Assembly (NCBI RefSeq): GCF_013315695.1
Contig: NZ_CP054353.1
DNA from: Escherichia coli
GTDB taxonomy: Bacteria; Pseudomonadota; Gammaproteobacteria; Enterobacterales; Enterobacteriaceae
DNA: 64,000 nt
Reading direction: 5' to 3' (one strand)
Part shown: positions 1 through 63,167 of the stretch, piece by piece
Position numbering within the stretch: the first letter of the stretch is position 1
Layout: the number at the start of each line of letters is the position of its first letter
Made by a program: the position numbers and the translations under genes
The notes under the pieces: generated by a model
Databases searched by the model: none
What the model saw: only the letters and a program-made list of their open reading frames with translations
What the model was told of the DNA's origin: nothing

Positions 1-473
1 CAGCGTCAATCTACTGAATTTCGTTGTCAATCCAGAGGATTTACGCAAATTAACCGTCGATGTTTTACCTACCCTGCGAGTTAATTCCGAGCAGGCCTGA
101 AATACCTGTAGGGTGCAATTCCATATCACGCGATAGATTCTATTCATATAAACGCTCCATATACAAACAATACAGCCACGAAAGAGATGAGTCATCAGAC
201 GTTAAAAATGAAACTTATTAAGTTGTCAGAGGTCTGTATTGAGTGTTGGTTGGAGGTGGGAAGGTGTCAATTTGGCTAATTTGCTAATGCTTTCGAATTG
301 ATAGATTAAAAATTGCATAGTTCTTATTTTATTTAAAAATGAACCATGAGTTATTGTTGCTTAATAAGAAAAATATTTCTTTCAATAAGAAAATTACCAT
401 CATCATATTTAACAAAGAATAGCACTAATTGCTAAAAAAGAACTCTATTAAAACTCTTGGTAATGACTCCAAC

Positions 474-977
474 TTATTGATAGTGTTTTATGTTCAGATA
501 ATGCTCGATGACTTTGTCATGCAGCTCCACCGATTTTGAGAACGACAGCGACTTCCGTCCCAGCCGTGCCAGGTGCTGCCTCAGATTCAGGTTATGCCGC
601 TCAATTCGCTGCGTATATCGCTTGCTGATTACGTGCAGCTTTCCCTTCAGGCGGGATTCATACAGCGGCCAGCCATCCGTCATCCATATCACCACGTCAA
701 AGGGTGACAGCAGGCTCATAAGACGCCCCAGCGTCGCCATAGTGCGTTCACCGAATACGTGCGCAACAACCGTCTTCCGGAGCCTGTCATACGCGTAAAA
801 CAGCCAGCGCTGGCGCGATTTAGCCCCGACATAGCCCCACTGTTCGTCCATTTCCGCGCAGACGATGACGTCACTGCCCGGCTGTATGCGCGAGGTTACC
901 GACTGCGGCCTGAGTTTTTTAAGTGACGTAAAATCGTGTTGAGGCCAACGCCCATAATGCGGGCTGTTGCCCGGCAT
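474..977 (-). CDS. insB: IS1 InsB (transposase made as InsAB' fusion by -1 frameshift)
   Basis: 167-aa translation [25 protein letters not shown]... recognised as IS1 InsB; overlaps the insA 3' end in the -1 frame. Confidence 0.95.
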
Positions 978-1171
978 CCAACGCCATTCATGGCCATATC
1001 AATGATTTTCTGGTGCGTACCGGGTTGAGAAGCGGTGTAAGTGAACTGCAGTTGCCATGTTTTACGGCAGTGAGAGCAGAGATAGCGCTGATGTCCGGCG
1101 GTGCTTTTGCCGTTACGCACCACCCCGTCAGTAGCTGAACAGGAGGGACAGCTGATAGAAACAGAAGCCAC
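896..1171 (-). CDS. insA: IS1 InsA (transposition regulator)
   Basis: 91-aa translation [43 protein letters not shown]... recognised as IS1 InsA. Confidence 0.95.
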
Positions 1172-1453
1172 TGGAGCACCTCAAAAACACCATCATACAC
1201 TAAATCAGTAAGTTGGCAGCATCACCAAAACTCTTTTTCATTCATTTATGCCTTTAGGAATATTCGCTATAAAATAAGGGTTATGCTTAATGTTTTAAGA
1301 AAAATAGCAATTTCCCCTTGAATATAGTACTGGCGATGGAACGATGAATCTGCAAGCTGGCATTTAACAAGCCAGCTCTAAAAGAAGGGAAATAAGAATA
1401 ACTATACTCAAAAACTAACAGCCACGGTCATCATGATGTGGCTGTCAATGAAA

Positions 1454-3045
1454 CTATAACCCAGGCGCTTTCCATAACGACGTCGTCAGTCCATGATCAA
1501 CCAGCCCCAGCTGATCCTGATAAACTGCCTGCCACTTATCGCGTGAATCCTGATAAAGTTCATGCTTTTCCGGGTCTGGTGTGTGCGTCCGTTCCCAGCG
1601 AACCAGGCGTTCTCCGGTTTCTGCTATTGATGAAAAAATTCCGGCACCGACGCCAGCTGCAATGGCACATCCTAATGCGGTGGCTTCTTTGACTACCGGA
1701 ATATTGACGGGTAATCCCGAGACATCAGCGAGAATTTGACTCCATAATTTCCCTTTTGAACCTCCGCCAGCAAAAACCAGCGAGGTGGGATGAATATTCG
1801 AGAAATCAGCAATTTGCTGCAAGTTACACGCTGATACAATCGCCGCATTTTCTTCCAGCGCACGAAACAATGTCGCTTTGTTACATTTATCCGGGTCAAT
1901 GGACAAGTTAATAAAGGAAGGTGCGGCGTGATACCAGGTTTTAAAGCGCATTCTGTCGGAGAAGATCGGCATTACGCCCCACGACCCAGGCGGCACCCGA
2001 CTGGCCATCTCTTCCAGCAGCGTATAGGTGTCGATGCCTAAACGTTCGGCAATCAGTTTTTCTTCGGCACAGAAAGCATCGCGGAACCAGCGCATGGTGA
2101 GTCCGGTAAAAAAGCTTATAGATTCAGCTTGTACCATGCCAGGAATAACATGGGGATTAACGCGCACGTTCATTTCTGGGTCTGTCACCGGCGCGGCTAA
2201 GTTTACAACTTGCTGCCAGAATGTACCGCCAAGAACCGCGGTTTGTGCCGGACGGACAACGCCTAACCCCAGGCAACCAAGTTGCACGTCACCTCCTCCA
2301 ACGACCACCGGAGTGCCGCCTTCAGACCGCAGAGTTCCGCCGCTTGTGAACTTACCACGCCCAGCAATGTGCCGGTTTCTTTGACAGGAGAAAGAATATC
2401 GGCACGCAGGCCAGCCATATCCAGCAATGCAGGTTTCCAGTCACGGGTGGTTAGATCAAGAAGTCCCGTGGTGCCAGCGTTAGAGGGATCCACCGCCAGT
2501 TCGCCGCTGAGCATATAGGCCAGCCAGTCGCTGATCATGGTGATGGTCGACGCCTGTCGGTAGATATCGGAACGATGGTGCGCCAGCCAAAGTAATCTGG
2601 GGATGGCACTTAAAGCCAGCGTTTGTCCGGTCGCGCGATAAACTTCGTTTTCAAAGGTATTGTTGTGCAGTTCTTTAAGTTCGCTAACTTCGCGCGCCGC
2701 TCTGGCATCCACATTGGCGCAGGCCCAGATCGGTGTTCCTTCATTATTATATAAAACAATGCCTTCACGCATCGAACATGCCGAAACGGCAGCGATATAC
2801 TCCGGGGCTATGCCGGCGTTGTGCAGCGCCTGGTGCATACACTCACACGCCAGTTGCCAGTTTTTGTTGAGATCAAATTCCATAGAACCAGGAACGTCCG
2901 GTACTGCCAGGTGCCGCCACTCCGCCTGTCCCACGGCTATTTGATTGCCTTCCAGGTCGAATATCACAGCCCGAATACTTCCGGTGCCTGCATCCAGCGC
3001 CATCAGGTAGTACTTTGATTCTGAAGGGGTAAAGAGTCGAGCCAT
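1454..3045 (-). pseudogene. lsrK: Autoinducer-2 kinase LsrK, split by a 1-bp frameshift near 2316
   Basis: Two overlapping ORFs (2263-3045 = FGGY kinase N-domain, 1454-2308 = C-domain) in different frames; restoring one G in ...aaggcg-gcactcc... gives the continuous reading [23 protein letters not shown]. Confidence 0.8.
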
Positions 3046-3123: not shown

Positions 3124-4077
3124 TTAACTACGTAAAATCGCCGCTGCTGTGTCCTGATCAGTAACCAGTGCGTTGATATAACCGCCTTTCATTGCAGCGG
3201 CAATTGCTTCGGCTTTATTTTCTCCCCCTGCCACGCCAACCCGGACGGGTATGGTCTTCAGCGCGCTTAAAGGTAAGCCAATCAGTTCGTTATGTATTTT
3301 GATATCCGTGACAACGTCACCTTTTGCATCAAAAAAGTAGCCTAAAATGTCGCCAACCGCCCCTTTTCGGCCAATCATTAACTGTTCGCCCTGGCTGATA
3401 TAACCGGAGCGAATGATCGTCGCGTCGTCTTGTTGACTCACGGCCCCAATGCCGACAATCGCCACATCCGCTGCTTGCGCGGCTAACAGAACATCTTTGA
3501 CGCAATTTTCATTTTTTAGCGTACGGGCAATGTCAGCGGAGGATGCCCGCAACGGAGCCGGAATAATATTCACACTGCACGCCGCGTTAAGCTGCCCGAT
3601 ACCCGTCATATAAGAACCGACGCCACCGGAGAGCGTGACCAGGCGAATTTGCTGTGACGAAATAAAACCACTTAAGCGTTGCAGCGTATTCATGATTGCC
3701 TCGCCAAAACCAATCGCCAGCATCTGTTGTGGTTGAAGTAAACTCATCAACATATGCGCCGCGCCTATCCCCAGTCGCCCGCCGACATCAGCATCCGCAA
3801 GCCCAGGGATCACCCGGACATGTTGCAGCGAAAACTGACGACGTAATTGAGTTTCATATTCCAGACAGCCTTCAAAGCGAGAATTAATCTGTACGCGAAT
3901 AATGCCGGACTGATGCCCTTTCTCCAGCAAGCGCGACACTTTCAAACGGGTCAGGCCGAGACGATCGCTGATCTCGCTCTGGGTCAGCCCGTCGTGATAG
4001 TAAAACCACGCGATCCGCGCGACCTGTTCTTCTTCACACATTCCCTGTTCTGAAATTGCCGAATCGTTGATTGTCAT
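3124..4077 (-). CDS. lsrR: LsrR, SorC-family repressor of the lsr operon
   Basis: 317-aa translation [51 protein letters not shown]... recognised as LsrR; divergent from lsrA. Confidence 0.95.
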
Positions 4078-4325: not shown

Positions 4326-5861
4326 ATGCAAACGAGTGATACCCGCGCGTTACCGCTACTTTGCGCCCGCTCGGTTTATAAACAGTATTCAGGAGTTAAT
4401 GTCCTGAAAGGCATCGATTTTACGTTGCATCAGGGGGAGGTCCACGCCCTGCTCGGCGGCAATGGTGCCGGTAAATCGACGTTAATGAAGATTATTGCCG
4501 GTATTACCCCTGCTGATAGCGGTACGCTGGAGATTGGGGGCAACAACTACGTCAGATTAACGCCAGTTCATGCTCATCAGCTGGGCATTTATCTCGTTCC
4601 CCAGGAACCGCTGCTTTTTCCAAGCCTGTCGATAAAAGAAAACATCCTGTTTGGTCTGGCAAAAAAACAACTCTCCATACAGAAAATGAATAACTTGCTG
4701 GCGGCGCTGGGCTGCCAGTTTGATCTGCATAGTCTGGCAGGATCGCTGGATGTCGCCGATCGCCAAATGGTGGAAATCCTCCGCGGGCTGATGCGCGATT
4801 CGCGAATTCTGATCCTCGATGAACCTACCGCCTCGCTTACTCCCGCCGAAACCGAACGTTTGTTTATTCGCTTGCGGGAGTTGCTTGCTACTGGCGTGGG
4901 TATTGTTTTTATCTCGCATAAGCTGCCGGAAATTCGCCAGATTGCCGACCGAATTAGCGTGATGCGCGACGGAACCATCGCCTTAAGCGGCAAAACCAGC
5001 GAACTGTCTACCGACGACATTATTCAGGCCATTACGCCAGCGCTACGGGAAAAATCGCTCTCTGCCAGCCAAAAATTATGGCTGGAATTACCTGGCAACC
5101 GCCCACAACATGCCGCGGGAACGCCGGTGCTGACACTGGAAAATCTGACCGGCGAAGGTTTCAGGAATGTCAGCCTGACGCTCAATGCCGGAGAAATTCT
5201 GGGCCTGGCTGGGCTGGTGGGAGCCGGACGCACAGAACTGGCCGAGACGCTCTATGGTCTGCGTACTTTGCGTGGCGGACGCATTATGCTGAATGGTAAA
5301 GAGATCAATAGATTATCCACCGGAGAACGTTTACTGCGCGGTCTGGTTTATCTGCCGGAAGATCGCCAGTCATCCGGACTTAATCTCGATGCTTCACTGG
5401 CGTGGAACGTCTGCGCCCTTACTCATAACCTTCGTGGATTCTGGGCGAAAACCGCGAAAGATAATGCCACCCTGGAACGATATCGTCGGGCGCTGAATAT
5501 TAAATTTAACCAACCGGAACAAGCTGCGCGGACCTTATCCGGCGGCAACCAGCAAAAAATCCTGATTGCCAAATGCCTGGAAGCCTCGCCGCAAGTATTG
5601 ATTGTCGATGAGCCGACGCGCGGCGTGGATGTCTCGGCGCGTAATGATATCTACCAACTGTTGCGCAGCATCGCCGCACAGAATGTGGCTGTGCTGCTTA
5701 TCTCCTCTGATCTCGAAGAGATCGAACTGATGGCAGATCGCGTGTATGTGATGCATCAGGGCGAAATTGCCCACTCTGCACTGACCGGGCGCGATATTAA
5801 TGTCGAGACCATTATGCGCGTTGCCTTCGGCGATAGTCAGCGTCAGGAGGCGTCATGCTGA
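4326..5861 (+). CDS. lsrA: LsrA, AI-2 ABC transporter ATP-binding protein
   Basis: 511 aa with duplicated ABC ATPase motifs ([17 protein letters not shown]); first gene of lsrACDBFG. Confidence 0.95.
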
Positions 5862-6883
5862 AATTTATTCAGAACAACCGTGAAATCACGGCACTGCTGG
5901 CGGTGGTGCTGCTGTTTGTATTACCCGGTTTTCTCGACCGTCAGTATTTAAGTGTGCAAACGCTGACCATGGTTTATAGCAGCGCGCAAATCCTGATCCT
6001 GCTGGCAATGGGCGCGACGCTGGTAATGCTTACGCGCAATATTGATGTTTCAGTGGGTTCGATTACCGGAATGTGCGCGGTGCTGTTGGGGATGTTACTG
6101 AACGCGGGGTATTCACTACCTGTTGCTTGTGTCGCGACTTTACTGCTTGGTTTGCTCGCGGGATTTTTCAACGGTGTCCTGCTCGCGTGGCTAAAGATCC
6201 CTGCCATTGTTGCCACGCTCGGTACATTAGGGTTGTACAGAGGCATCATGTTGCTGTGGACTGGCGGTAAATGGATTGAGGGATTACCCGCCGAACTGAA
6301 ACAACTCTCCGCCCCGCTGCTGTTTGGCGTTTCCGCGATTGGTTGGTTGACGATAATTCTGGTGGCATTTATGGCCTGGCTGCTGGCAAAGACGGCGTTT
6401 GGACGCAGTTTTTATGTCACGGGCGATAATTTACAGGGCGCTCGTCAACTGGGCGTTCGTACGGAAGCCATTCGCATTGTGGCATTTTCGTTGAACGGCT
6501 GCATGGCGGCACTGGCGGGAATTGTGTTTGCTTCGCAGATTGGTTTTATCCCCAACCAGACCGGTACCGGGCTGGAGATGAAAGCAATTGCAGCCTGCGT
6601 GCTGGGCGGCATTAGTTTGCTCGGCGGTTCCGGTGCGATCATCGGTGCGGTACTAGGCGCATGGTTCCTGACGCAGATCGATAGCGTACTGGTGCTGTTA
6701 CGCATTCCGGCATGGTGGAATGATTTTATCGCGGGCATGGTTCTGCTGGCGGTGCTGGTGTTTGATGGACGCCTGCGTTGTGCGCTGGAACGTAATCTGC
6801 GGCGGCAAAAATATGCCCGCTTTATGATGCCACCGCCATCCGTTAAACCCGCTTCGTCAGGTAAAAAACGGGAGGCCGCATAA
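5855..6883 (+). CDS. lsrC: LsrC, AI-2 ABC transporter permease
   Basis: 342-aa polytopic membrane protein; start overlaps lsrA stop; synteny. Confidence 0.9.
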
Positions 6884-7875
6884 TGCGTATTCGCTACGGT
6901 TGGGAACTGGCTCTTGCCGCACTGCTCGTTATTGAGATTGTTGCATTTGGTGCAATTAACCCGCGGATGTTAGATCTCAATATGTTGCTGTTCAGCACCA
7001 GTGACTTTATCTGCATTGGCATTGTCGCCCTACCGCTGACGATGGTGATTGTCAGTGGTGGGATCGATATTTCGTTTGGTTCGACTATCGGCCTGTGCGC
7101 CATCGCATTGGGTGTGTTGTTTCAAGGCGGCGTGCCGATGCCGCTGGCGATTATCCTGACGTTACTGCTCGGCGCATTGTGCGGGTTGATCAACGCCGGA
7201 TTAATTATCTATACCAAAGTTAACCCGCTGGTGATTACGCTTGGCACGCTGTATCTGTTTGCCGGAAGCGCCCTGCTGCTTTCCGGGATGGCCGGAGCGA
7301 CGGGGTACGAAGGTATTGGTGGATTCCCGATGGCGTTTACAGATTTCGCTAACCTGGATGTACTGGGACTCCCCGTTCCGCTGATTATCTTCCTGATATG
7401 TCTCCTCGTTTTCTGGCTCTGGCTGCATAAAACCCATGCCGGACGTTACGTGTTTTTAATTGGGCAAAGCCCGCGTGTGGCGGTTTATAGCGCGATTCCA
7501 GTTAACCGCACCTTGTGTGCGCTCTATGCCATGACGGGGCTGGCGTCTGCGGTCGCCGCTGTGCTGCTGGTATCGTATTTTGGTTCAGCACGTTCCGATC
7601 TCGGTGCGTCGTTTCTGATGCCCGCCATCACCGCCGTAGTGCTCGGCGGTGCCAATATTTATGGAGGTTCTGGTTCCATTATCGGCACCGCCATTGCGGT
7701 TTTATTAGTGGGATATTTGCAACAAGGTTTGCAAATGGCAGGAGTGCCAAATCAGGTGTCCAGCGCCCTTTCCGGTGCGCTACTTATCGTCGTTGTCGTA
7801 GGTCGTTCCGTTAGCCTGCATCGCCAGCAAATTAAAGAGTGGCTGGCGCGTCGGGCCAATAACCCATTGCCATAA
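6883..7875 (+). CDS. lsrD: LsrD, AI-2 ABC transporter permease
   Basis: 330-aa membrane protein; ATGA overlap with lsrC; synteny. Confidence 0.9.
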
Positions 7876-7886
7876 AGGATATCTTC

Positions 7887-8909
7887 ATGACACTTCATCG
7901 CTTTAAGAAAATCGCCTTACTTAGCGCTCTTGGCATTGCCGCAATCTCTATGAATGTGCAGGCCGCAGAGCGTATTGCATTTATTCCCAAACTGGTTGGC
8001 GTGGGATTTTTTACCAGCGGTGGCAACGGCGCACAACAAGCGGGTAAAGAGCTGGGCGTTGATGTGACCTACGACGGGCCGACAGAACCCAGTGTTTCTG
8101 GTCAGGTACAGTTGATTAATAACTTCGTCAATCAGGGCTATAACGCCATTATCGTTTCTGCGGTTTCGCCTGATGGCTTGTGTCCGGCACTGAAACGCGC
8201 CATGCAACGTGGTGTGAGAGTGCTGACCTGGGACTCTGATACTAAACCGGAGTGCCGCTCTTACTACATTAATCAGGGAACGCCCGCCCAGTTGGGAGGT
8301 ATGTTGGTGGATATGGCGGCGCGTCAGGTGAATAAAGACAAAGCCAAAGTCGCGTTTTTCTACTCAAGCCCCACCGTTACGGACCAAAACCAGTGGGTGA
8401 AAGAAGCGAAAGCGAAAATCGCCAAAGAGCATCCAGGCTGGGAAATTGTCACTACGCAGTTTGGCTATAACGATGCCACTAAATCGTTACAAACCGCAGA
8501 AGGAATATTAAAAGCCTATAACGATCTCGACGCCATTATCGCCCCCGATGCCAATGCCCTGCCCGCTGCCGCACAAGCCGCAGAAAACCTGAAAAATGAC
8601 AAAGTTGCGATTGTCGGATTCAGTACGCCAAACGTGATGCGTCCATATGTGGAACGCGGCACGGTGAAAGAATTTGGCCTGTGGGATGTGGTTCAGCAAG
8701 GCAAAATATCAGTTTATGTCGCGGATGCATTATTGAAAAAAGGATCAATGAAAACGGGCGACAAGCTGGATATTCAGGGCGTAGGTCAGGTGGAAGTCTC
8801 GCCAAACAGCGTTCAGGGCTATGACTACGAAGCGGATGGTAATGGCATCGTACTGTTACCGGAGCGCGTGATATTCAACAAAGAGAATATCGGCAAATAC
8901 GATTTCTGA
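7887..8909 (+). CDS. lsrB: LsrB, periplasmic AI-2 binding protein
   Basis: 340 aa with signal peptide ([26 protein letters not shown]) and periplasmic sugar-binding fold; synteny. Confidence 0.9.
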
Positions 8910-8935
8910 TGTGCATTACTTAACCGGAGTACGTT

Positions 8936-9811
8936 ATGGCAGATTTAGACGATATTAAAGATGGTAAAGATTTTCGTACCGATCAACCGCAAAAAAATAT
9001 CCCTTTTACCCTGAAAGGTTGCGGTGCACTGGATTGGGGAATGCAGTCACGCTTATCGCGGATATTTAATCCGAAAACGGGTAAAACCGTGATGCTGGCC
9101 TTTGATCATGGTTATTTTCAGGGGCCGACTACTGGACTTGAACGCATTGATATAAATATCGCCCCGCTGTTTGAACATGCCGATGTATTAATGTGTACGC
9201 GCGGCATTTTGCGCAGCGTAGTCCCCCCTGCGACCAATAAGCCGGTGGTACTGCGGGCGTCAGGTGCGAACTCTATTCTGGCGGAATTAAGTAATGAAGC
9301 CGTGGCGTTATCGATGGATGACGCCGTGCGCCTGAACAGTTGCGCGGTGGCGGCGCAGGTTTATATCGGCAGCGAATATGAACATCAGTCGATCAAAAAT
9401 ATTATTCAGCTGGTCGATGCCGGAATGAAAGTGGGAATGCCGACCATGGCCGTGACTGGCGTGGGCAAAGATATGGTGCGCGATCAGCGTTATTTCTCGC
9501 TCGCGACTCGAATCGCCGCTGAAATGGGGGCGCAAATTATCAAAACCTATTATGTCGAAAAAGGTTTTGAACGGATTGTTGCCGGATGTCCGGTACCCAT
9601 TGTTATTGCTGGCGGTAAAAAATTACCGGAGCGCGAGGCGCTGGAAATGTGCTGGCAGGCTATCGATCAGGGCGCTTCTGGTGTGGATATGGGGCGTAAT
9701 ATTTTCCAGTCTGACCATCCGGTGGCGATGATGAAAGCCGTACAGGCGGTGGTACACCATAACGAAACGGCTGATCGGGCATATGAACTCTATCTGAGTG
9801 AAAAACAGTAA
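8936..9811 (+). CDS. lsrF: LsrF, aldolase-like thiolase acting on phospho-AI-2 derivative
   Basis: 291 aa, DhnA/class I aldolase-like; position after lsrB. Confidence 0.9.
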
Positions 9812-9834
9812 CTGCGGATTTAAGGAGAAGAATT

Positions 9835-10125
9835 ATGCACGTCACACTGGTTGAAATTAACGTTCATGAAGACAAGGTTGACGAGTTTATCGAAGTTTTT
9901 CGCCAGAACCACCTGGGCTCGGTACAGGAAGAAGGCAATTTGCGCTTCGATGTCTTACAGGACCCGGAAGTGAATTCGCGCTTTTATATCTACGAAGCTT
10001 ATAAAGATGAAGACGCAGTGGCGTTCCATAAAACCACGCCCCACTACAAAACCTGTGTCGCAAAACTGGAAGCTTTAATGACCGGGCCGCGTAAAAAACG
10101 TCTGTTCAATGGATTGATGCCGTGA
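9835..10125 (+). CDS. lsrG: LsrG, phospho-AI-2 isomerase
   Basis: 96-aa antibiotic-biosynthesis-monooxygenase-like protein; last gene of operon. Confidence 0.9.
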
Positions 10126-10181
10126 GGCGAATTTATCAGTTTTATCTACACTAGGGGTAACGCGCTGACGGGAGTAAAAAT

Positions 10182-21572: not shown

Positions 21573-22233
21573 GGTACGTTTTAATGATTTCCAGGATGCC
21601 GTTAATAATAAACTGCACCCCCATACATACCAGCAGGAATCCCATCAGACGGGAGATCGCTTCAATGCCCCCCTTACCCACCAGCCGCATAATTGCGCCA
21701 GAGCTGCGTAGACTTCCCCACAAAATAACCGCCACCAGGAAAAAGATCAGCGGCGGCGCAACCATCAGTACCCAATCAGCAAAGGTTGAACTCTGACGCA
21801 CTGTGGAGGCCGAGCTAATAATCATCGCTATGGTTCCCGGACCCGCGGTACTTGGCATTGCCAGTGGTACAAAAGCAATATTGGCGCTGGGTTCATCTTC
21901 CAGCTCTTCCGACTTGCTTTTCGCTTCCGGTGAATCAATCGCTTTCTGTTGCGGAAAGAGCATCCGAAAACCGATAAACGCGACGATTAAGCCGCCTGCA
22001 ATTCGCAGACCGGGAATCGAAATGCCAAATGTATCCATCACCAGTTGCCCGGCGTAATACGCCACCATCATGATGGCAAATACGTACACCGAGGCCATCA
22101 ACGACTGACGATTACGTTCAGCACTGTTCATGTTGCCTGCCAGGCCAAGAAATAACGCGACAGTTGTTAATGGGTTAGCTAACGGTAGTAACACCACCAG
22201 CCCCAGGCCTATTGCTTTAAACAAATCTAACAT
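21568..22233 (-). CDS. marC: MarC inner membrane protein
   Basis: 221-aa membrane protein divergent from marRAB. Confidence 0.9.
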
Positions 22234-27121: not shown

Positions 27122-28444
27122 TTATCCGTTAGTTGTTAAGTTATTGACCTTGTTGGCGGCAATAACAAAAGGTAAATAGATCATTGTCGCCACACCTAAA
27201 CATAAAAAACCCACCAGTAACGCCAGCCAGTTTCCCCCGGTTCCGAGGAAAGCAATTAAAGGTCCGGGCGTAGTCCAGGGCACGGCATAAGCAACCGGTG
27301 GAATAATTTCCATCGAAACAAAGAAGTAACCAATGGCACAGTTAACAATAGGAACCATAATAAACGGCACCATCATGATGGGGTTAAGTACAATAGGAAG
27401 GCCGAACATTATCGGTTCATTGATATTGAAAATACCGGGGATAAATGACATTTTTGCCAGATCACGGTATTCCGCACGCTTAGAAGCGATAAAAATAGCC
27501 AACAATAACCCCAACGTCATACCTGAACCGCCGCAGTTGGCGAATGCATCATTAATAGAAGTCCAGGTAATCGGATATGGCGCGCCCCAGGTAGTGCCGT
27601 GTTGAGCGACCCAGGAGAGATTCTCCAGATTAGCCTCAGAAAAAACAGTTTCTCGAATTGCCGAGGTGGTATTAGGTCCGTGGATCCCCAGCACCCACAG
27701 GAAATTACCCACAGCCCCCAGGATAATTACCGCAAAGATATTCGTTCCCATATGTTTGAGCGGCGTCTGGATTAATGTGTAAATGAGGTCGTTTAATCCT
27801 GCCGGGGATATCAGTGTCAGGCAATAATTAAGTGCGGAAAAGAACACCATGACAAAAAATATTGGCAATAAAACTTTAAATGAACGCGCTACCGCAGGAG
27901 GTACAGCTGCCGGCATCGTGATGGTGATTTTGGGGTTTCGAGCTAAGCGACAAAATATTTCACTGGTGATCAGTGCAACGATAACAGCAACAAATAACCC
28001 CTGCGCGCCGAGATATTTGGTCGTCAGGAATGCTTGCCCATCTATCATCTGATATGGCGTATATACAATAAAAAATGCTCCTATTGCCGTTAATCCGCAT
28101 AAAAGATCATCTTGCTCATAGCTAATCGCCATATTCCTGGCGACCAGGAAAGCAATCATAATTGACATGATATTTACAGAACCATTCATTACCGGAGTAA
28201 AAATAGCTTGTGCTTTTTCAAGGTTGGGGAAAACGCTGTTCAGATGCAGCAGCCCGGCAATAAAGCCGTCGGGCGATAATATGGCAAAGTTAATTAATAT
28301 AATTAATGAGCTTGCCATGATAATTGGAAACGTAAAAACGAATCCATCTCTCACCGCTGCAACATGTTTTTGTGAGTTTAACTTGATAGCAACTGGAACA
28401 AGAAAACGTTCCATTCCACGTTCGAATGAGGCCATTAATCCCAT
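27122..28444 (-). CDS. PTS lactose/cellobiose-family EIIC permease
   Basis: 440-aa polytopic membrane protein resembling ChbC/CelB. Confidence 0.85.
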   Translation of the reverse strand: MGLMASFERGMERFLVPVAIKLNSQKHVAAVRDGFVFTFPIIMASSLIILINFAILSPDGFIAGLLHLNSVFPNLEKAQAIFTPVMNGSVNIMSIMIAFLVARNMAISYEQDDLLCGLTAIGAFFIVYTPYQMIDGQAFLTTKYLGAQGLFVAVIVALITSEIFCRLARNPKITITMPAAVPPAVARSFKVLLPIFFVMVFFSALNYCLTLISPAGLNDLIYTLIQTPLKHMGTNIFAVIILGAVGNFLWVLGIHGPNTTSAIRETVFSEANLENLSWVAQHGTTWGAPYPITWTSINDAFANCGGSGMTLGLLLAIFIASKRAEYRDLAKMSFIPGIFNINEPIMFGLPIVLNPIMMVPFIMVPIVNCAIGYFFVSMEIIPPVAYAVPWTTPGPLIAFLGTGGNWLALLVGFLCLGVATMIYLPFVIAANKVNNLTTNG

Positions 28445-28527: not shown

Positions 28528-29722
<1,195 letters not shown>

Positions 29723-29756: not shown

Positions 29757-30068
29757 TTACTCTTGCAGTAGTTTCATCGCAAATTCAAGAACTGCCTGTC
29801 CGTTCATGCTGCCATAGTCTTTCATCTCGATAACAGCTACAGGCATTTTCCCCTGTGCAACAGCTTCAATCTCTGGTTTCTGAAAGCGAACTTGCGGGCC
29901 AAGTAAAACAACGTCAACTTCGTTATTTTTAATTTTCCCTTTAGCCTCTGCAATCGCCAATGCGGAAATATTAACTTCAAGTGAAATAGCGTTAGCATGA
30001 TCAATCATACGTTTAACCAGCATACTGGTTGACATGCCCGCAGCGCAAACTAACAATATCTTTTTCAT
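29757..30068 (-). CDS. PTS lactose/cellobiose-family EIIB
   Basis: 103 aa with N-terminal MKKILLVCAAGMSTS phosphocysteine motif (ChbB-like). Confidence 0.85.
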   Translation of the reverse strand: MKKILLVCAAGMSTSMLVKRMIDHANAISLEVNISALAIAEAKGKIKNNEVDVVLLGPQVRFQKPEIEAVAQGKMPVAVIEMKDYGSMNGQAVLEFAMKLLQE

Positions 30069-46040: not shown

Positions 46041-46246
46041 TAGATTGACTCCCCCATCTGAGCATCAGTCAATGCCTTGTGCCAAATACGCAGATTTCGA
46101 ACGTGTCCAAATAGGTGACGGTTGCCGGATGATGATTGACCACCAATATTAATGAAGCCTCCTGTATATTTGTGTTTTTTATAAGGAGAAAGGTGATGCT
46201 GCCAACTTACTGATTTAGTGTATGATGGTGTTTTTGAGGTGCTCCA

Positions 46247-46522
46247 GTGGCTTCTGTTTCTATCAGCTGTCCCTCCTGTTCAGCTACTGACGGGGTGGTG
46301 CGTAACGGCAAAAGCACCGCCGGACATCAGCGCTATCTCTGCTCTCACTGCCGTAAAACATGGCAACTGCAGTTCACTTACACCGCTTCTCAACCCGGTA
46401 CGCACCAGAAAATCATTGATATGGCCATGAATGGCGTTGGATGCCGGGCAACAGCCCGCATTATGGGCGTTGGCCTCAACACGATTTTACGTCACTTAAA
46501 AAACTCAGGCCGCAGTCGGTAA
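46247..46522 (+). CDS. insA: IS1 InsA
   Basis: Identical 91-aa InsA translation to copy A. Confidence 0.95.
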
Positions 46523-46944
46523 CCTCGCGCATACAGCCGGGCAGTGACGTCATCGTCTGCGCGGAAATGGACGAACAGTGGGGCTATGTCGGGGCTAAAT
46601 CGCGCCAGCGCTGGCTGTTTTACGCGTATGACAGGCTCCGGAAGACGGTTGTTGCGCACGTATTCGGTGAACGCACTATGGCGACGCTGGGGCGTCTTAT
46701 GAGCCTGCTGTCACCCTTTGACGTGGTGATATGGATGACGGATGGCTGGCCGCTGTATGAATCCCGCCTGAAGGGAAAGCTGCACGTAATCAGCAAGCGA
46801 TATACGCAGCGAATTGAGCGGCATAACCTGAATCTGAGGCAGCACCTGGCACGGCTGGGACGGAAGTCGCTGTCGTTCTCAAAATCGGTGGAGCTGCATG
46901 ACAAAGTCATCGGGCATTATCTGAACATAAAACACTATCAATAA
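46441..46944 (+). CDS. insB: IS1 InsB
   Basis: 167-aa InsB; one residue differs from copy A (G versus E near the C-terminus). Confidence 0.95.
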
Positions 46945-48379
46945 GTTGGAGTCATTACCAAGGAGAAACTACCTTAGCACCAATATTACCGTTAACCACA
47001 ACACACAATTCTCGACTTTCTGTGAATCTAAAGCCGATAATGCTTTTTCTCTCTGGTCGTTCTATAACGCTTTTATATTCTATTTTAGTGCCTTTACCAT
47101 TTGTAATGATTGCGCGTGCTCCCAAAGATGTATACCCCAAATACATATAACTTTCATCTGCAATTTCAGTTGTATCTCCCGTAGTGGAAATATTAAGAAT
47201 ACGTGCGCTACCTTCTTTGTTTGGCGATTCATCCCAATTGGTATTAACTTCTGCTAATGAACTAATAGCGGGATTGCACCAATTTAGAGAAATGGGGACC
47301 GTTACAATATCGCTGGCGCGTGTTACAGGGGATGCGCCTGTTATAATAAACGATGAAGCGCATGCCCCACCTTCAACTTGAGGGGTCGCAATATAAATAT
47401 AATCATCCGCGCCAGTGCCCACTCCTTTTGCCGGGGCATACTGAACCATTCCACCTATCATATTTTCTGTATCAAGTGCCTTAATTGTCGCCTCAAAAAA
47501 GATCCATTTGCTTGCTTCATCTTTAACAGCCCTTGCAGTAATGCGATTAGCGGCACCACCCGTCTTATCAATAGATAAATCTGTCGTATTTAAGTAAGCG
47601 TCACCTAAGAATGTGTAGGTAGAACCATCATAGTTTTCAAATCGTAATCGGCATCTTAAATTTGGAGTGCCACTTTGCACCCTGCATGATATGGTTACAT
47701 ACTTTTCTCCGCCTGTTACATCAAAACCTTTACTGCCGGAAACGGTTACTATGTTAATCGCTGAAATTTGCCCTACCATTTCTGGTTTTAATGTAAATTT
47801 TGCGTACTGGAATCCGAAATCATCTACACCTGATGCACTTAAGATCATATTTGACGACTTGTTCCATTTAGTCGGATTTGTTGAATTGATTAGCAGGTTA
47901 GTTCTTTGCCCCTCAATAAGCAGGCCATCACGTTCAAATCGTGGCTCGTCAATGGCAGCCTCTGTCAGCACACCAGATTTATTAATGTAAGTTGCTTTCG
48001 ATGCGCGTTTAAACTTTACAATCTTGTCGCCAGGCATTGTTATTTCATCGTCGCCAATAACAATTTTTTTATATGATGGCGAAAAGCCCGTAATCATATC
48101 CAGTGAATCATTAAACGGTATCCACACATCGGGCAACGGCTGCAAAACTTGTTTATACGGCTCCGCTGCCTGGCTTGCATACTCTCTGGCTGCGTCTTCA
48201 CTTGCTTTAGCTGCTGTCTGGCTTGCTGCCGATGCTTGCGCCGAGTTCGCCGCCGCAGTCTCGCTCGCCTTTGCGTTGGTTTCACTGGTTTTTGCTGCTT
48301 TTTGACTGTTAGCTGATGCAGTGGCAGAAGCAGCCGCCGCGCTTGCAGAACTGGCTGCGGCACTCTCGCTTTGGGCCGC

Positions 48380-48700
48380 TGCATCCTGACTGCTTTTCGC
48401 CGCAGTTTCACTGGCTTTGGCATTCGTTTCGCTGGTCTTCGCTGCCGTCTGGCTGGACTTTGCGTTAGTTTCACTCGTCTTCGCAGCTTTCTGGCTGTTA
48501 GCCGCAGCAGTTGCTGATCCAGCTGCTGAAGTCGCAGAACCGGCTGCCGCGCTCTCGCTTTGGGCTGCTGCAACCTGGCTGTTTTTTGCCGCAGTTTCAC
48601 TGGCTTTGGCATTCGTTTCGCTGGTTTTCGCTGCCGTCTGGCTGGACTTTGCGTTGGTTTCGCTCGTCTTTGCGGCTGTCTCGCTATTTTTCGCGTTGGT
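48380..48700 (-). repeat. Tandem 189-bp (63-codon) direct repeats inside stf
   Basis: gcagtttcactggctttggcattcgtttcgctgg... recurs at 48402 and 48591 (offset 189 bp); a more diverged copy lies upstream. Confidence 0.8.
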
Positions 48701-49229
48701 TTCTGATTTTTTGGCTGCTGTCGCGGAGTTTGCCGATGCAGTCTTTGAGGTCGCTGCCGCCTGTGCACTATTAGCTGCATTCGTTTCTGAGGTTTTCGCC
48801 GCGTTCTTCGATGATGCCGCTGCAGTTTCGGATTTCTTTGCCGCCGCTGCGCTCTGAGAGGCGGCTTCAGCGTTGCGTGCCGCTTCTTCCACCATTTCCT
48901 CAAAACGACGCAATGCCTCCGGCATGACATCATCTTCCGTCATGGCACCGAGAAAATCATTCAGCGTACCTGGTCTGGAACCTTCATAGACGGTAATGGT
49001 TCCGGCATGTGAAGGCGGAAAACCTTCAACCAGCAGGGTGACGCTGTACTGGCCATACTCAACATCCATGCTGTAACGCCCGGCTTCATCCGGATTTTCA
49101 GAGGCCACTGTGTTGACCAGTACCGTGGTGCTGTTACGCTTTGCCTTCAGTTGAATAGTGCAGTTCTGTATTGGTTTTCCCGCACCATCTTTCAGCACAC
49201 CTGAGATTTTTACTGCTGCCATATCCACT

Positions 49230-49262
49230 CCACAAAAAAGCCCGCCTGAACCGGCGGGCTGT
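49230..49262 (-). terminator. Rho-independent terminator downstream of lom
   Basis: Stem agcccgcc/ggcgggct; minus strand continues tttttgtgg. Confidence 0.7.
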
Positions 49263-49286
49263 CATAACACTGTGTTACCTGGCTAA

Positions 49287-49886
49287 TCAGAATTTATAAC
49301 CGACACCAACGATGAAACCGTCAGTGCGCCAGTCGCCACTGCCGGAACCTTCATAAGCAATATCAATGGCCACGGATTCGGTCGGGTTAAACTGCACGCC
49401 AGCCCCCCATGCCAGAGACGTGTCGCTGTGGCGACCGTCATCACTTCCGGTCAGCACATCGTGCGTTTTCCCCTTGTTGTCAGTTACGCGGATATAATCT
49501 CCGGAGAAAGTCGAAACACGGCTGTAAGCCATACCCGCCATCGCATACGCGCTGAACCATTCATTCACGCGCACAGACGGCCCCACCATCACGCTGAACC
49601 AGCGGTTACGCACGGAATCTTCATGCCAGCGGGTATCGCTGTAACGGGTAAGCTGGCGATTCTTGTCTCCTGCATAGCTGAATGACGTCACCATCCCCAG
49701 TGTGTCCGTAAACTCATAACGGTATTTCACGTTAATCCCGTTCAGATCATCGCTGCCGGGAACGTTCGTCGAGGCATGAAGATACCCCGCGCTCAGCGTG
49801 GACTGATGTTCAGATGCCCATGCAGGCGCACCGGATACGGCCAGACAAATGGCTGCGGAAAAAATGGCGGCACAAACTTTACGCAT
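49287..49886 (-). CDS. lom: Lom-like outer membrane protein (Ail/PagC/OmpX family)
   Basis: 199-aa beta-barrel with signal peptide; position between J and stf as in lambda. Confidence 0.9.
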
Positions 49887-49953
49887 AATTACCTCTCGCT
49901 TTTCTGCAATAAAAAAGGCGCCATTTCTGGCGCCCGTATATGGGTTATAAAAT

Positions 49954-50793
49954 TCAGCTGATACTGATGCCTGCGGTGGCTTTCTTCATCACCACAACCA
50001 GCAGATCGCTGATACTTGCTGTGGGATACCAGTCATTTACCAGCCATGCTGACACCGAAAACTCCAGCGTCATGTGACCGTGACCGGCAGGCATATCAAT
50101 AACGCCACTGTAAATCAGCGTATTATCCAGCGCGGTACGGTTATAAATTTCAGCACCGTTTTTCCGCACTATCAGACGGCATGAGGAGTAAATATCAGTA
50201 TGCTCTCTCTCATGTTTAGCGCCGCTGAATGCCACCGCCGGAATAACAATCTGCCGGTCAAACGGCTGATCGTCATAAACCCTGACGGTAATGGTCCCTG
50301 ATGGCCACCGTTCCGGTGCACGGGAGTCCCGGGGGAAAGCTTTGCCCACTGTTTTAACGAGATCGCCTTCAATCTGGTTCGCGGACAGTTTTCCCAGAAC
50401 CCGACAGTTCTCGTTAATCGTGACGTTGTTGAGCGTCCCGGAGTTCGCATTCACGTTACCACTGATATCCGCATTTTTAGCAGTCAGCTTTCCGTCCGGT
50501 GTCAGGGAAAATGCCGGTGGATTTCCACCACTGGTAATGGTGGGGGCCGTCAGGCGCTTCAGGAACACGTCGTTCATGAATATCTGGTTGCCCTGCGCCA
50601 CAAACATCGGCGTTTCATTCCCGTTTGCCGGGTCAATAAACGCGATACGATTGGCGGCAACCAGAAACTGACTCAGTTTGCCTTCCTCTGTATCCTCCAT
50701 GCTGAGGCCAATACCCGCGACATAATGTTTGCCGTCTTTGGTCTGCTCAATTTTGACAGCCCACATGGCATTCCATTTATCGTTGGCATCCTT
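49954..50793 (-). pseudogene. J: C-terminal 280 codons of tail tip protein J, N-terminal part deleted
   Basis: Translation ends like lambda J (...[36 protein letters not shown]); upstream boundary is the IS3-family terminus at 50794; no ATG start. Confidence 0.85.
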
Positions 50794-50801
50794 TGTAGTG
50801 G

Positions 50802-54127
<3,326 letters not shown>

Positions 54128-54142
54128 CGCTGACTCTCCGGA

Positions 54143-54883
54143 TTAACTGGCGGTGACGGTGATTTCTGCAACCGCAGCAAACTCACCATTACCGGATACA
54201 ACCGGAATGTTGACCTTGCCTGCAGCAACGCCGTTCACGGTGATGGTCATACCACTGACCGACACGGTGGCTTTTGTTTTATCCGCTGACACCGCACGGA
54301 AGCTCTTGTCGGTTGCGCCTTCCGGCTGGAAGGCCACGGTCAGCGTGGTGCTCTGCCCTTTCACTACGGAAGCACTGGCTGGCGTTACCGTCATGCCGGT
54401 GGCCGCTGTTACCGTGCTGCGATCTTCTGCCATCGACGGGCGTCCCACATTGGTGACCTTCACCGTGCGGGTGATCACTTCCTTCGCCGTCACCGCTTTA
54501 CCGATACTGCTGACCCAGCCACGGAACACATCGACCGTGCCGTTCGGGAAGCGGATTTTATAGGCACGGGTATCACCTTCATTAAACCACGCCAGCAGCG
54601 CCTGCTGCCCCTGCTCTCCGGGCATCCACGCCAGCGTGAAGCTGGTATCTCCGGCTGATTTCTGCCCCTGCCCGGTCGCAGTCCAGTCCGCATCCTCATC
54701 ATCGAGATAACTGTCGTCATAGGACTCAGCGGTCAGTTCGCCGGGCGTCAGGTCTTTAACTTTTGCCAGACGCGACCAGTCAACGTCTGAAAGCGGGTTC
54801 GCATAAGGGTCACCGCTCCCCTTATAAACCCACAGGGTGGTCCCGGCACCTTTCACCGGCATTACAGGATTTGGTACAGGCAT
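54143..54883 (-). CDS. V: Major tail protein gpV
   Basis: [45 protein letters not shown]... recognised as lambda V; C-terminal Ig-like domain. Confidence 0.9.
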
Positions 54884-54890
54884 AGCGTCC

Positions 54891-55286
54891 TCACATTTCA
54901 TAGGTAATGACATAAGTCAGATCGGCTGAACTCCACAGGCCCGCATCATCGTCGCGCCGGTAGTCATAGCCACTGGCCACCATACTGGTGATCAAATCTG
55001 ACAGTGCCGGGATATCGCTCATCACCGGATAAATCCGGGACTCCATCCACGAATCCAGCTCTGAATCCGGCACCTGAGCAGGCAGGAAAACTTCAATATG
55101 CAGCTCCGCCTGCCAGGTATCGCTGTCCAGCTCTTCGCCCGTGTATTCAGCGCCGGTGAGATAAACGGCAATTGCCGGAAAATCTTCCTCATCAAAAACA
55201 GCGGGGCGACCATCAAAAAGCGTCGCCCCGGTGTCATGCTTCTCCAGTGCATCCAGTACGGCTGCACGGAGTTCAGTATGTTTCAT
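54891..55286 (-). CDS. U: Tail terminator gpU
   Basis: 131 aa, [43 protein letters not shown]... recognised as lambda U. Confidence 0.9.
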
Positions 55287-55861
55287 CGCTTTATTACCAT
55301 TCTCAGTTGATGCTGCAGCGCATAGCCCAGCTCTTTCGGAAGACGCTCACGCCGTATCCGTTCAATATTCTGTTTAAACGCCGTGGTCAGTGGCACCGCC
55401 ATCGGGATTTTCACCACATCAATGGGGTAACGGTTTTTCCCGGCCACACGCTGCATGACATGCCACCGGCCATTTTTCAGTTGCTGAATAAACGCGCCGG
55501 GAATACGACGGTTTCCCACCACAAGCACGCTGCCGCCACCTTTCAGGGATGAACGCTGCCCCTTTTTACGACGCCTGCGTCGGGACAGGACAACCCGCGC
55601 ATTACCCAGCTTGATTACGGGCAAATCCCCCCGGTTAACCTTGATTCTGGCCTGCGGATTTTTAACCGTGGCCCTTTTCAGCCTGGCCCTTTCCTTTACC
55701 AGTTTCCGGCGTACCTTTGTCTCACGGGCAACCTGTGACGCCGACTGCGATATCGCGGATGAAGCAACGCGGTTAATGGCCATTGCGGCGGCACCAGGCA
55801 CCGCCGTTTTGCTGATACGGCTGAGGTTTTCAACGGCCTGCTCAAGACCCTGTATGGCCAT
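55283..55861 (-). CDS. Z: Tail completion protein gpZ
   Basis: MAIQGLEQAVENLSRISKTAVPGAAAMAINRVASS... recognised as lambda Z; start taken as the ATG at 55861 in the second copy of a 43-bp duplication. Confidence 0.85.
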   Translation of the reverse strand: MAIQGLEQAVENLSRISKTAVPGAAAMAINRVASSAISQSASQVARETKVRRKLVKERARLKRATVKNPQARIKVNRGDLPVIKLGNARVVLSRRRRRKKGQRSSLKGGGSVLVVGNRRIPGAFIQQLKNGRWHVMQRVAGKNRYPIDVVKIPMAVPLTTAFKQNIERIRRERLPKELGYALQHQLRMVIKR

Positions 55862-55914
55862 ACATCCCCCTTTCAACGGCCTGCTCAAGACCTTTTATGG
55901 CCATACATCCCCCT
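55829..55914 (-). repeat. 43-bp tandem duplication spanning the gpZ RBS and start codon
   Basis: 55829-55871 and 55872-55914 match at 41 of 43 positions; each copy carries aggggg-ATG-tATGGCCATA. Confidence 0.85.
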
Positions 55915-55915
55915 T

Positions 55916-56269
55916 TCAGCGGCGACGGTTAACGGCAGGCGGAACGCCACGCCCAAGCCAGAGATGACAGCTTCCGCCATCATCCGGCGATACCCGGTCT
56001 ATCCAGAAGTTTTCCTCACCGATGGTCAGCGTGTCTCCACGCCGCAGCTGCCGCACCTCATCAGTCCGGACAAACAGGGACGGGCTGGAGCCTTCAACGC
56101 GCACGCCCTGTCCGGCATAGCTGATATTTTCAGGGTCATCAAAAACACCACGTATTACTGCGCCGGACTGCTCACCGGATGTCATGGTGGCTGACGTTCC
56201 CATGTACCCGCGTATCGTTTCATCGGCGCGGGCAATGGCAGCATCGAACAGGTTATCGAAATCAGCCAC
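55916..56269 (-). CDS. FII: Head-tail joining protein gpFII
   Basis: 117 aa, MADFDNLFDAAIARADETIRGYMGTSATMTSGEQSG... recognised as lambda FII. Confidence 0.9.
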   Translation of the reverse strand: MADFDNLFDAAIARADETIRGYMGTSATMTSGEQSGAVIRGVFDDPENISYAGQGVRVEGSSPSLFVRTDEVRQLRRGDTLTIGEENFWIDRVSPDDGGSCHLWLGRGVPPAVNRRR

Positions 56270-56280
56270 AGCGCCTCCCG

Positions 56281-56676
56281 TTATTGCATTCTGGCCAGGC
56301 CACGTTCTGTCATTTCAGCTGCCACACCGGCAGAGACACGGAACGCCGTTCCCGGCAGCACAAATGCCACAGCCTCATCCCGCGTGGCGTGAAGTGCATC
56401 AGTATGCAGCGTCACCAGTGCCACAACCGTGACCAGATCAGCCGTATCAGTCACGGTATCCGGCTGCGCTGATACAACCTCATTTTCATGTCCGGTCAGC
56501 GCATTTTCCGGGCTGACAGATGTGTCCTGACCGGCAGCGTCATCCGTGTCATCAAGCTCCTCTTCCAGCTCTGCCACACGGAGCACCAGTTCTTCTTTCG
56601 TCCCCGTCAGGCTGACATCACGGTTCAGTTGCTCACCCAGCACCTGAAGACGGGCAATCAGTTCATCTTTCGTCAT
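56281..56676 (-). CDS. FI: DNA-packaging protein gpFI
   Basis: MTKDELIARLQVLGEQLNRDVSLTGTKEEL... recognised as lambda FI; ORF track extends further upstream. Confidence 0.85.
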   Translation of the reverse strand: MTKDELIARLQVLGEQLNRDVSLTGTKEELVLRVAELEEELDDTDDAAGQDTSVSPENALTGHENEVVSAQPDTVTDTADLVTVVALVTLHTDALHATRDEAVAFVLPGTAFRVSAGVAAEMTERGLARMQ

Positions 56677-56717
56677 GGACTCCTCCACAAAGAGAAAATG
56701 GCCCCGAAGGGCCATGA

Positions 56718-57743
56718 TTACGCCAGTTGTACGGACACGAACGCATCAGGGTCAGCCAGCAGCATCAGCGGTGCTGACTGAATCATGGTGAACTCACGCG
56801 CCGGATCGCCGGTGGTCACCCAGTTTTTCGGGTAGCGGGCAGAAGCGTTAATACCTTCGCGCTGTGCGTCCGCATCCTGAATGCAGCCATAGGTGCGCAG
56901 ACCGCGTGCCTGAGTGTTCCCCAGCACCATCGTGTTGTCCGGAAGGAAGTTCTTTTTGACGTCGTTTTCCACGTACTGTCCGGAATACACGACGATCGCC
57001 GTATCGCCATACATCCCCTTATAGGACACCGCTTCGCCCAGGTCTTTTACCGCTGTCTCCAGCTCGGAATGAGAGCCGCGACGGGTATCCAGCTTCTCCC
57101 TGACGGCTTTGAAGGAACGGAACAGCGCCCAGCCTTTCGGATCAAACACGATGATATTCACCACGCCGCTGGCGTTCAGCGCATAGGCTTCGATATCGTC
57201 GGTCGGGTCATACGTGGACTTGTCACGCTTGCTCCACTCCGTACCACCGGACTGTGTGATGTTGTTCGCCGCACTGCGGCCCATATCCACTTCAACCGGA
57301 TCGAAGGCTTCACCGGTCATGGTGTATTTGCCCTTAAGCACGGCAGAAACTGCCTGCATCTCTTCGACCTGAGCAATGGCCAGCTCTTCGTCTCGCATGT
57401 TCTGCATGATGATGCGACGGCGGCGGTAAGCCGGGTCCGCCAGATTCTGCGGATCTTCATCCGGCAGGCGACGCAGGGTCATCTGCGGATTCACCTCATG
57501 CTTCGGCTTGACATATCCCGGTGTAAATTCAGAGGTGGAGCCGCCACGGGAGCGGATAACCTCACCGGAAACAATCGGCGAAACGTACAGCGCCATGTTT
57601 ACCAGTCCCGGAATTTGTGAGAGATAGACTTTCTCCGTGGTGAAGGGATAGCTCTCACGGAAAAAGAGACGCAGAAACAGCGGATCAAACTTAAATTTCT
57701 GCTCATTTGCCGCCAGCAGCTGGGCGGTTGTGTACATCGACAT
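56718..57743 (-). CDS. E: Major capsid protein gpE
   Basis: MSMYTTAQLLAANEQKFKFDPLFLRLFFRESYPFTTEKVYLSQIPGLVNMALYVSP... recognised as lambda E. Confidence 0.95.
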   Translation of the reverse strand: MSMYTTAQLLAANEQKFKFDPLFLRLFFRESYPFTTEKVYLSQIPGLVNMALYVSPIVSGEVIRSRGGSTSEFTPGYVKPKHEVNPQMTLRRLPDEDPQNLADPAYRRRRIIMQNMRDEELAIAQVEEMQAVSAVLKGKYTMTGEAFDPVEVDMGRSAANNITQSGGTEWSKRDKSTYDPTDDIEAYALNASGVVNIIVFDPKGWALFRSFKAVREKLDTRRGSHSELETAVKDLGEAVSYKGMYGDTAIVVYSGQYVENDVKKNFLPDNTMVLGNTQARGLRTYGCIQDADAQREGINASARYPKNWVTTGDPAREFTMIQSAPLMLLADPDAFVSVQLA

Positions 57744-57798
57744 AAAAAAATCCCGTAAAAAAAGCCGCACAGGCGGCCTTTAGTGATGAAGGGTAAAG

Positions 57799-58131
57799 TT
57801 AAACGATGCTGATTGCCGTTCCGGCAAACGCGGTCCGTTTTTTCGTCTCGTCGCTGGCAGCCTCCGGCCAGAGCACATCCTCATAACGGAACGTGCCGGA
57901 CTTGTAGAACGTCAGCGTGGTGCTGGTCTGGTCAGCTGCAACAGCCAGAATGCCAACGGCAGCACCGTCGGTGGTGCCATCCCACGCAACCAGCTTACGG
58001 GTGGCGGTGTCAAGCATCAGCGGAGTCATTGCAGGCGCTTTCGCACTCAATCCGCCGGGCGCGGTTGCGGTATGAGCCGGGTCACTGTTGCCCAGCGGCT
58101 GGTAATGGGTAAAGGTTTCTTTGCTCGTCAT
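57799..58131 (-). CDS. D: Capsid decoration protein gpD
   Basis: [41 protein letters not shown]... recognised as lambda D. Confidence 0.95.
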
Positions 58132-58140
58132 AAACATCCC

Positions 58141-59440: not shown

Positions 59441-59460
<20 letters not shown>
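58141..59460 (-). CDS. C: Capsid maturation protease gpC (scaffold Nu3 nested in frame at its 3' end)
   Basis: S49-family ClpP-like domain; start set at the GTG aligned with lambda C (VTAELRNLPHI), overlapping the B stop by 20 nt. Confidence 0.85.

Positions 59461-63141
<3,681 letters not shown>

Positions 63142-63167
<26 letters not shown>

Follow-up and report, generated by a model that had tools for sequence, protein, structure and literature searches.

The lsrK gene in the analysed stretch of Escherichia coli DNA is very probably a genuine, vertically inherited loss-of-function allele, which would leave the rest of the lsr operon repressed, and the IS1 element that lies beyond it very probably came later and independently. 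The window is the whole stretch of DNA that was analysed, 64,000 nucleotides of contig NZ_CP054353.1. As a frameshift the lesion is already known, since the RefSeq annotation carries this label: PGAP annotates lsrK as a 'frameshifted' pseudogene in both of the complete genomes MSB1_4I and AF3. The features of the locus in the window are the following.

1454–3045, minus strand: lsrK pseudogene, autoinducer-2 kinase of the FGGY family, with a 1-bp gap against the lsrK of strain MS 21-1 and annotated by PGAP as 'frameshifted' in MSB1_4I and AF3
2316–2317, minus strand: site of the 1-bp deletion, at the end of codon 243 and the start of codon 244 (alignment column 744; gene positions 729–730)
2263–3045, minus strand: N-terminal ORF, native residues 1–243 followed by 17 out-of-frame residues and TAG (from the ORF list)
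1454–2308, minus strand: C-terminal frame, native residues 247–530 from the GTG at 2308 or 254–530 from the GTG at 2287 (from the ORF list)
3124–4077, minus strand: lsrR, the repressor gene, intact and cotranscribed with lsrK, which lies downstream of it (317 aa; 619 bits against the NCBIfam LsrR equivalog, cut-off 486)
4326–10125, plus strand: lsrACDBFG, divergent operon with six full-length ORFs (from the ORF list)

The window lsrK spans 1592 bp on the minus strand, against 1593 bp in the normal gene. As reference we used the lsrK of MS 21-1 (1593 bp, 530 aa), the closest intact allele among 5,426 complete E. coli genomes. In the MAFFT alignment the two lsrK regions differ once in 1621 bp: one G is missing from a coding-strand GGG, which appears on the plus strand as CCC reduced to CC at 2316–2317, and the coding strand is changed from GGCGGGCAC to GGCGGCAC. 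The sequence-only reading had proposed a single-base frameshift inside 2300–2325, with the two halves of the gene in different frames overlapping at 2263–2308. The same overlap is found in the ORF list, the alignment to the intact MS 21-1 gene places the lesion at 2316–2317, and the continuous reading obtained by putting the G back is identical to the reconstruction proposed there. The 530 codons are divided into a 260-aa N-terminal ORF, which opens with the normal LsrK start, and a C-terminal ORF of 277–284 aa, which closes with the normal ...SLWKAPGL. The break comes after codon 243, and is followed by 17 out-of-frame residues and a TAG at 2263–2265. The window lsrK is a pseudogene in the sense that its frame is disrupted against intact orthologues in real DNA.

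Elsewhere the locus is undamaged. lsrR and lsrA, C, D, B, F and G encode proteins of the standard lengths of 317, 511, 342, 330, 340, 291 and 96 aa, so that the description of lsrACDBFG as otherwise intact holds for all six ORFs, and lsrR is annotated as intact in the near-identical MSB1_4I record. The lsrR gene, the control region between lsrR and lsrA and the lsrACDBFG operon are identical to those of MS 21-1, except for a mutation in the MS 21-1 lsrB at window position 8395. The defective gene also occupies the genomic context of a true lsrK, downstream of lsrR and divergent from lsrACDBFG. In E. coli K-12, where every lsr knockout was tested, the lsrK mutant fails to internalise AI-2 (Brito et al. 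2013, PMC3595036). Without LsrK there is no phospho-AI-2 inducer and no expression of the LsrB receptor, which makes the cells blind to AI-2, and natural strains defective in lsrK are predicted to be blind in the same way (PMC3595036). By analogy with the published K-12 genetics, the lack of phospho-AI-2 would keep LsrR on the lsr promoters, the bound repressor would hold the intact lsrACDBFG at a basal level, and the strain would still release AI-2 but neither import it nor respond to it via Lsr. This repressed but intact operon, as proposed from the sequence alone, appears the best-supported model, because lsrR, the control region and lsrACDBFG are all intact. Entry routes for AI-2 other than Lsr exist, as far as they are cited in PMC3595036 (Pereira et al. 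2012); signal entering by such routes is not trapped in the absence of LsrK.

At the protein level, the restored, ancestral LsrK matches the NCBIfam LsrK equivalog NF008187 with 998.5 bits (curated cut-off 528 bits) and covers profile positions 2–521. The match of the N-terminal ORF is 421 bits and confined to positions 2–235 of 521, that of the C-terminal ORF is 534.6 bits and confined to positions 245–521, and among the ORFs of the window no single product spans the model. Judged by these matches, the DNA is an lsrK gene, yet no protein predicted from it is a complete LsrK. The product of the MS 21-1 allele is near-identical to the crystallised E. coli LsrK (PDB 5YA0), and the Pfam domains of the intact protein are FGGY_N at residues 13–260 and FGGY_C at residues 298–467. 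No polypeptide of the window carries FGGY_N and FGGY_C together with the aspartate of the GGGD motif, since the frameshift separates the two domains. The N-terminal product has most of FGGY_N (domain I), and contains neither the GGGD motif nor any part of domain II. Asp253, the aspartate of this motif, sits 10 codons past the break and is absent from the N-terminal product. It aligns with Asp233 of the E. coli xylulokinase 2ITM, a position which we take to be the catalytic base of FGGY kinases. The LsrK structure paper assigns the binding of the sugar substrate and of HPr to domain I and that of ATP to domain II (PMC5983913). Because the catalytic Asp253 and the ATP-binding domain II are both missing, the normally started, truncated LsrK is predicted from its sequence and the family architecture to be unable to phosphorylate AI-2.

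The deletion is shared with close relatives. An 80-mer across it has exact matches in two of the 5,426 complete RefSeq genomes, MSB1_4I (NZ_LR898874.1, 2589001–2653000; rectal swab, Australia) and AF3 (NZ_OZ547117.1; blood culture, UK), and the window, which is distinct from both, is the third assembly with the lsrK deletion. Over about 42–45 kb of backbone the window has 5 mismatches to MSB1_4I and 7 to AF3, whereas over about 45 kb MS 21-1 (NZ_CP146670.1) shows 23 mismatches to the window and 25 to AF3. Since these counts stand at 5–7 against 23–25, the frameshifted genomes form a tight clade with MS 21-1 outside it; and because the lsrK of this outside strain is intact, the intact gene is the ancestral state and the deletion is derived and inherited. 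Clade members differ by only 0–2 SNPs in the 10.8 kb around lsr, and the clone is therefore young. An ancestor of a near-clonal E. coli lineage very probably lost one G from the lsrK GGG run, and this lineage includes the window strain, MSB1_4I, AF3, KTE69, KTE143, an NCTC strain and hundreds more of the public assemblies. The window and MSB1_4I differ by 3 mismatches in the first 28.5 kb; in addition, the window has one IS5 and one IS1 more than MSB1_4I, and its prophage segment is more diverged.

The loss of lsrK is common in E. coli, and the lsrK of the window represents a very ordinary and well-described kind of pseudogene. At least 80% of lsrK is retained in 4,170 of the 5,426 complete genomes (77%), and most of the gene is gone in the other 23%. 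The state of lsrK was also read in 60 genomes taken at even intervals: the full gene was found in 47, one of them with a frame-breaking span of 1591 bp, partial matches were found in two, and only a remnant of 36–38 bp was left in eleven, including ST131 and APEC O1. Functional LsrK was lacking in 23 of 40 natural strains studied earlier (Brito et al., PMC3595036). The same work deduced that the lsr operon was inactivated independently at least eight times, attributed 6 of 34 lsr pseudogenes to small indels of 1–2 bp, described IS elements adjoining decaying or inactivated lsr operons, and found the trigger lesion mostly unidentifiable, as later deletions erase it (PMC3595036). The locus in the window resembles these natural lsr pseudogenes of E. 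coli and Shigella strains (Brito, Rocha, Xavier & Gordo 2013, Genome Biol Evol 5:16) in the loss of lsrK with luxS kept, the small indel route, an IS near the locus and the predicted loss of AI-2 internalisation and sensing. Most of the operons described there suffered large truncations, whereas in the window a single base is the sole lesion and the intact ancestral state is present in a sister strain. The window lsrK allele itself was not found in the literature searched.

Engineered lsrK deletions have reportedly been made in E. coli K-12 and in Salmonella, by Xavier & Bassler in 2005 and Taga et al. in 2003. On re-testing, lsrK deletion mutants leave AI-2 in the medium and show no lsr induction (PMC3595036). 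The window shares with the engineered strains the absence of the kinase together with intact lsrR and lsrACDBFG. The engineered mutants are clean deletions, whereas from the window a 243-residue N-terminal fragment of domain I, to which HPr binds, could still be made.

Close relatives, themselves natural isolates, carry lesions of the same inactivating class in the same lsr locus, located at other sites and arising as separate events. Deletions of 1–2 bp in lsrK occur in 13E0780, where a different single base is lost, and in UTAK-12. AF3 has suffered a further deletion, 2,361 bp long, which takes out lsrB, lsrF and lsrG along with the 3' end of lsrD (window-equivalent 7785–10145), with 4–5 bp of microhomology. 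MS 21-1, in which lsrK is intact, has its own lsrB nonsense mutation W170*, a G to A change at window 8395. Transporter lesions of this locus slow AI-2 uptake in K-12 knockouts without abolishing it (PMC3595036). In the NCTC clade genome GCA_900448625.1, lsrR appears split by two 1-base insertions in T6 and A4 runs (window-equivalent 3511 and 3705), which could be further decay or PacBio homopolymer errors. We treated this split, with both insertions in homopolymers, as a possible long-read error and not as a second lesion.

It is possible, though unlikely, that the same lesion was favoured by selection and not by drift, the strain being a 'cheater' that produces AI-2 and no longer pays for its uptake. 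Inactivation of lsr has been argued to be non-neutral and recurrent (Brito et al., PMC3595036), and of the only three positions at which MS 21-1 departs from the window across the 9 kb of lsr, two are independent inactivating hits (the lsrK deletion and lsrB W170*). The subsequent loss of lsrD'–lsrG in AF3 and the other lsrK indels of 13E0780 and UTAK-12 point in the same direction. However, lsr knockouts in monoculture show small or no fitness effects (PMC3595036), and the fixation of one clone requires no selection. Three of about five loss-of-function events in 45 kb fall within the 20% that is lsr, for which a rough binomial test gives p ~0.06 on tiny numbers. The clade holds five SNPs in lsr genes, four of them nonsynonymous by hand translation, which are too few to judge selection. 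The lsr lesions hint at selection against Lsr function, on numbers that are far too small to establish it. In a more specific and rather doubtful version, selection would have favoured the frameshift as the founding mutation of a clone of AI-2 'non-consumers' that circulates among human gut and bloodstream isolates. The frameshift would then be the isolated trigger mutation, the AF3 deletion of lsrD'–lsrG its follow-on decay and the MS 21-1 lsrB W170* a parallel hit; in an exotic variant of this version both halves of LsrK would be made and some function kept, for example by the HPr-binding domain I fragment.

The preferred reading, an inherited loss of kinase function, also has to be weighed against residual activity of the two halves. 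Nearly all clade members seen have kept the remainder of lsr undamaged, with lsrR and the promoter region; this fits a recent lesion, and would equally fit residual LsrK function. One sequence element bears on the translation of the second half.

2292–2299, minus strand: internal Shine-Dalgarno-like GGAGGAGG at codons G250–G252, 4–7 nt before the GTG at 2287 (read from the sequence)

The C-terminal fragment might be made, given this strong Shine-Dalgarno-like sequence, and GGAGGAGG with GTG 2287 seems the only plausible route to such a fragment, which would start after Asp253. The element is at the same time part of the normal coding sequence of the GGGD motif. Gene callers on public contigs take the 277-aa C-terminal version that starts at GTG 2287. 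For a split but functional kinase, translation would have to restart at GTG 2308 or 2287, close to the TAG at 2263, and the C-terminal fragment so made would have to associate with the N-terminal one and phosphorylate AI-2 together with it. The 46-nt overlap of the frames does put terminating ribosomes near two in-frame GTGs, GGAGGAGG stands 4–7 nt ahead of GTG 2287, the gene callers prefer this start, and the remaining operon is intact in most clade members. Nevertheless we consider such a kinase very improbable. The break lies within FGGY_N (13–260), where there is no domain boundary; the fragment from GTG 2287 begins at residue 254 and lacks Asp253, while GTG 2308 is preceded only by a weak AAGG 10 nt upstream; and LsrK profile positions 236–244 are contained in neither fragment. 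To our knowledge, no natural FGGY kinase is made in two pieces. The intact operon is explained by lack of time, the clade being near-clonal (0–2 SNPs per 10.8 kb).

That the G was dropped by a homopolymer miscall, with the true lsrK intact, has only a negligible probability. Long-read errors are most often single-base indels, and the NCTC clade genome mentioned above has two error-like single-base insertions in the T6 and A4 runs of lsrR. The affected run in lsrK, however, is just 3 bases long, and the identical deletion is found across assemblies, laboratories and platforms. Across NCBI, ENA, JGI and Logan, 1,099 index blocks and at least 644 contigs hold the exact 260-aa product; among its carriers are metagenome scaffolds, an NCTC strain and the Illumina-era drafts KTE69 and KTE143. 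All nine fetched loci bearing the truncated product show the split into 260 aa and 277 aa, and all twelve clade assemblies examined, the window counted, are in the deleted state. A miscall in a 3-base run is ruled out because the same split recurs across many public contigs, and we rejected a sequencing artefact because the deletion is common to independent assemblies. The caveat of a homopolymer error, raised when the frameshift was read from the window, is thus settled in favour of a real frameshift by two independent complete genomes and at least 644 contigs.

The idea that some cells regain LsrK through a programmed -1 ribosomal frameshift, slippage during transcription or a G that is reversibly gained and lost is almost certainly wrong: although the lesion falls in a short mononucleotide run, neither a slippery heptamer X XXY YYZ nor a homopolymer of at least 5 was found in 2263–2440, the 178-nt zone where a -1 shift yields an uninterrupted product, the tract itself is GG, and all twelve clade assemblies examined carry the deletion. 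Runs of 2–3 bases are far shorter than the lengths known to slip. We rejected programmed frameshifting, slippage and phase variation because there are neither slippery sites nor long runs.

Beyond the 3' end of lsrK lie two further features.

1414–1449, minus strand: stem-loop right after the lsrK stop, followed by UUAGUUUUUG (RNA fold -19.9 kcal/mol, z = -3.8 against shuffles)
459–1226, minus strand: IS1 of 768 bp, not part of the lsrK lesion, with the 9-bp target duplication AAAACTCTT at 450–458 and 1227–1235

The hairpin is predicted to be the likely lsrRK terminator; a simple consensus terminator scan omitted it, and a U-rich tail is present. The IS1 noted in the sequence-only reading is real, although its distance from the lsrK stop codon is 227 bp and not 220 bp; the start of an ESPR autotransporter gene follows about 311 bp downstream of it. 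No IS1 is located within the lsrK gene, promoter or transcript, as the element lies beyond the predicted terminator hairpin at 1414–1449. Among the twelve frameshift-carrying assemblies compared, the window counted, the IS1 is present in six and absent from six; AF3 lacks it. Because just half of the frameshift carriers have it, the IS1 is a later arrival in a subclade and irrelevant to lsrK; as cause or modifier of the lsrK defect it was rejected by its position and its distribution within the clade. The 5' end of the ESPR-type autotransporter gene lies at window 1–147, and its promoter may be affected by the IS1. In MSB1_4I and AF3, an IS4 and autotransporter barrel fragments with the annotation 'partial' come after this coding region. 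In the clade member OZ040295.1, from 11573 onward, a TonB-dependent receptor gene and others replace the autotransporter gene past the IS1, a junction that suggests an IS1-mediated rearrangement or deletion.

Other mobile elements are found elsewhere in the window. An IS5 of 1195 bp occupies 28528–29722, with a 326-aa transposase ORF on the minus strand (28674–29654), imperfect terminal repeats GGAAGGTGCGAA... and the 4-bp target duplication TTAG. MSB1_4I, AF3 and MS 21-1 all lack this element, which lies between the IIB (29757–30068) and IIC (27122–28444) genes of a cellobiose-type PTS/porin/6-phospho-beta-glucosidase operon, where it could exert polar effects on the genes downstream or change their expression. 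The carbohydrate porin gene of AF3 has a 1-bp frameshift that might be an assembly error, and in MS 21-1 a deletion of about 205 bp frameshifts marC (window-equivalent 21784–21988). A second IS1 (46192–46959; 768 bp, one mismatch to the first, opposite orientation, 9-bp junction overlap) sits inside a gene annotated in MSB1_4I as prophage tail-fibre N-terminal domain, and the site is empty in MSB1_4I, AF3 and MS 21-1. The part of a lambdoid (Qin-like) prophage at 48440–64000 is 98.97% identical to MSB1_4I (158 mismatches in 15.6 kb), whereas the backbone is ~99.99% identical; the contrast suggests that the prophage has recombined or been replaced in strains that are nearly identical elsewhere.

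The significance of the lsrK frameshift beyond strain bookkeeping is small. The one mildly interesting point is that the clone shows the first lesion of lsr operon decay in isolation: the trigger lesion can be identified here because the single-base deletion is the only defect of the locus. The lineage gives an order of events, with the kinase lost first, a transporter-gene deletion next and IS traffic nearby after. Work on quorum sensing, biofilms or gut competition with MSB1_4I, AF3, KTE69, KTE143 and their relatives should expect AI-2 production with no import or response through Lsr. For studies of 'labile signal reception', the clade and MS 21-1 offer a natural pair whose lsrK differs by one base, and the repaired and frameshifted alleles would provide an isogenic comparison for the advantage of losing AI-2 uptake.
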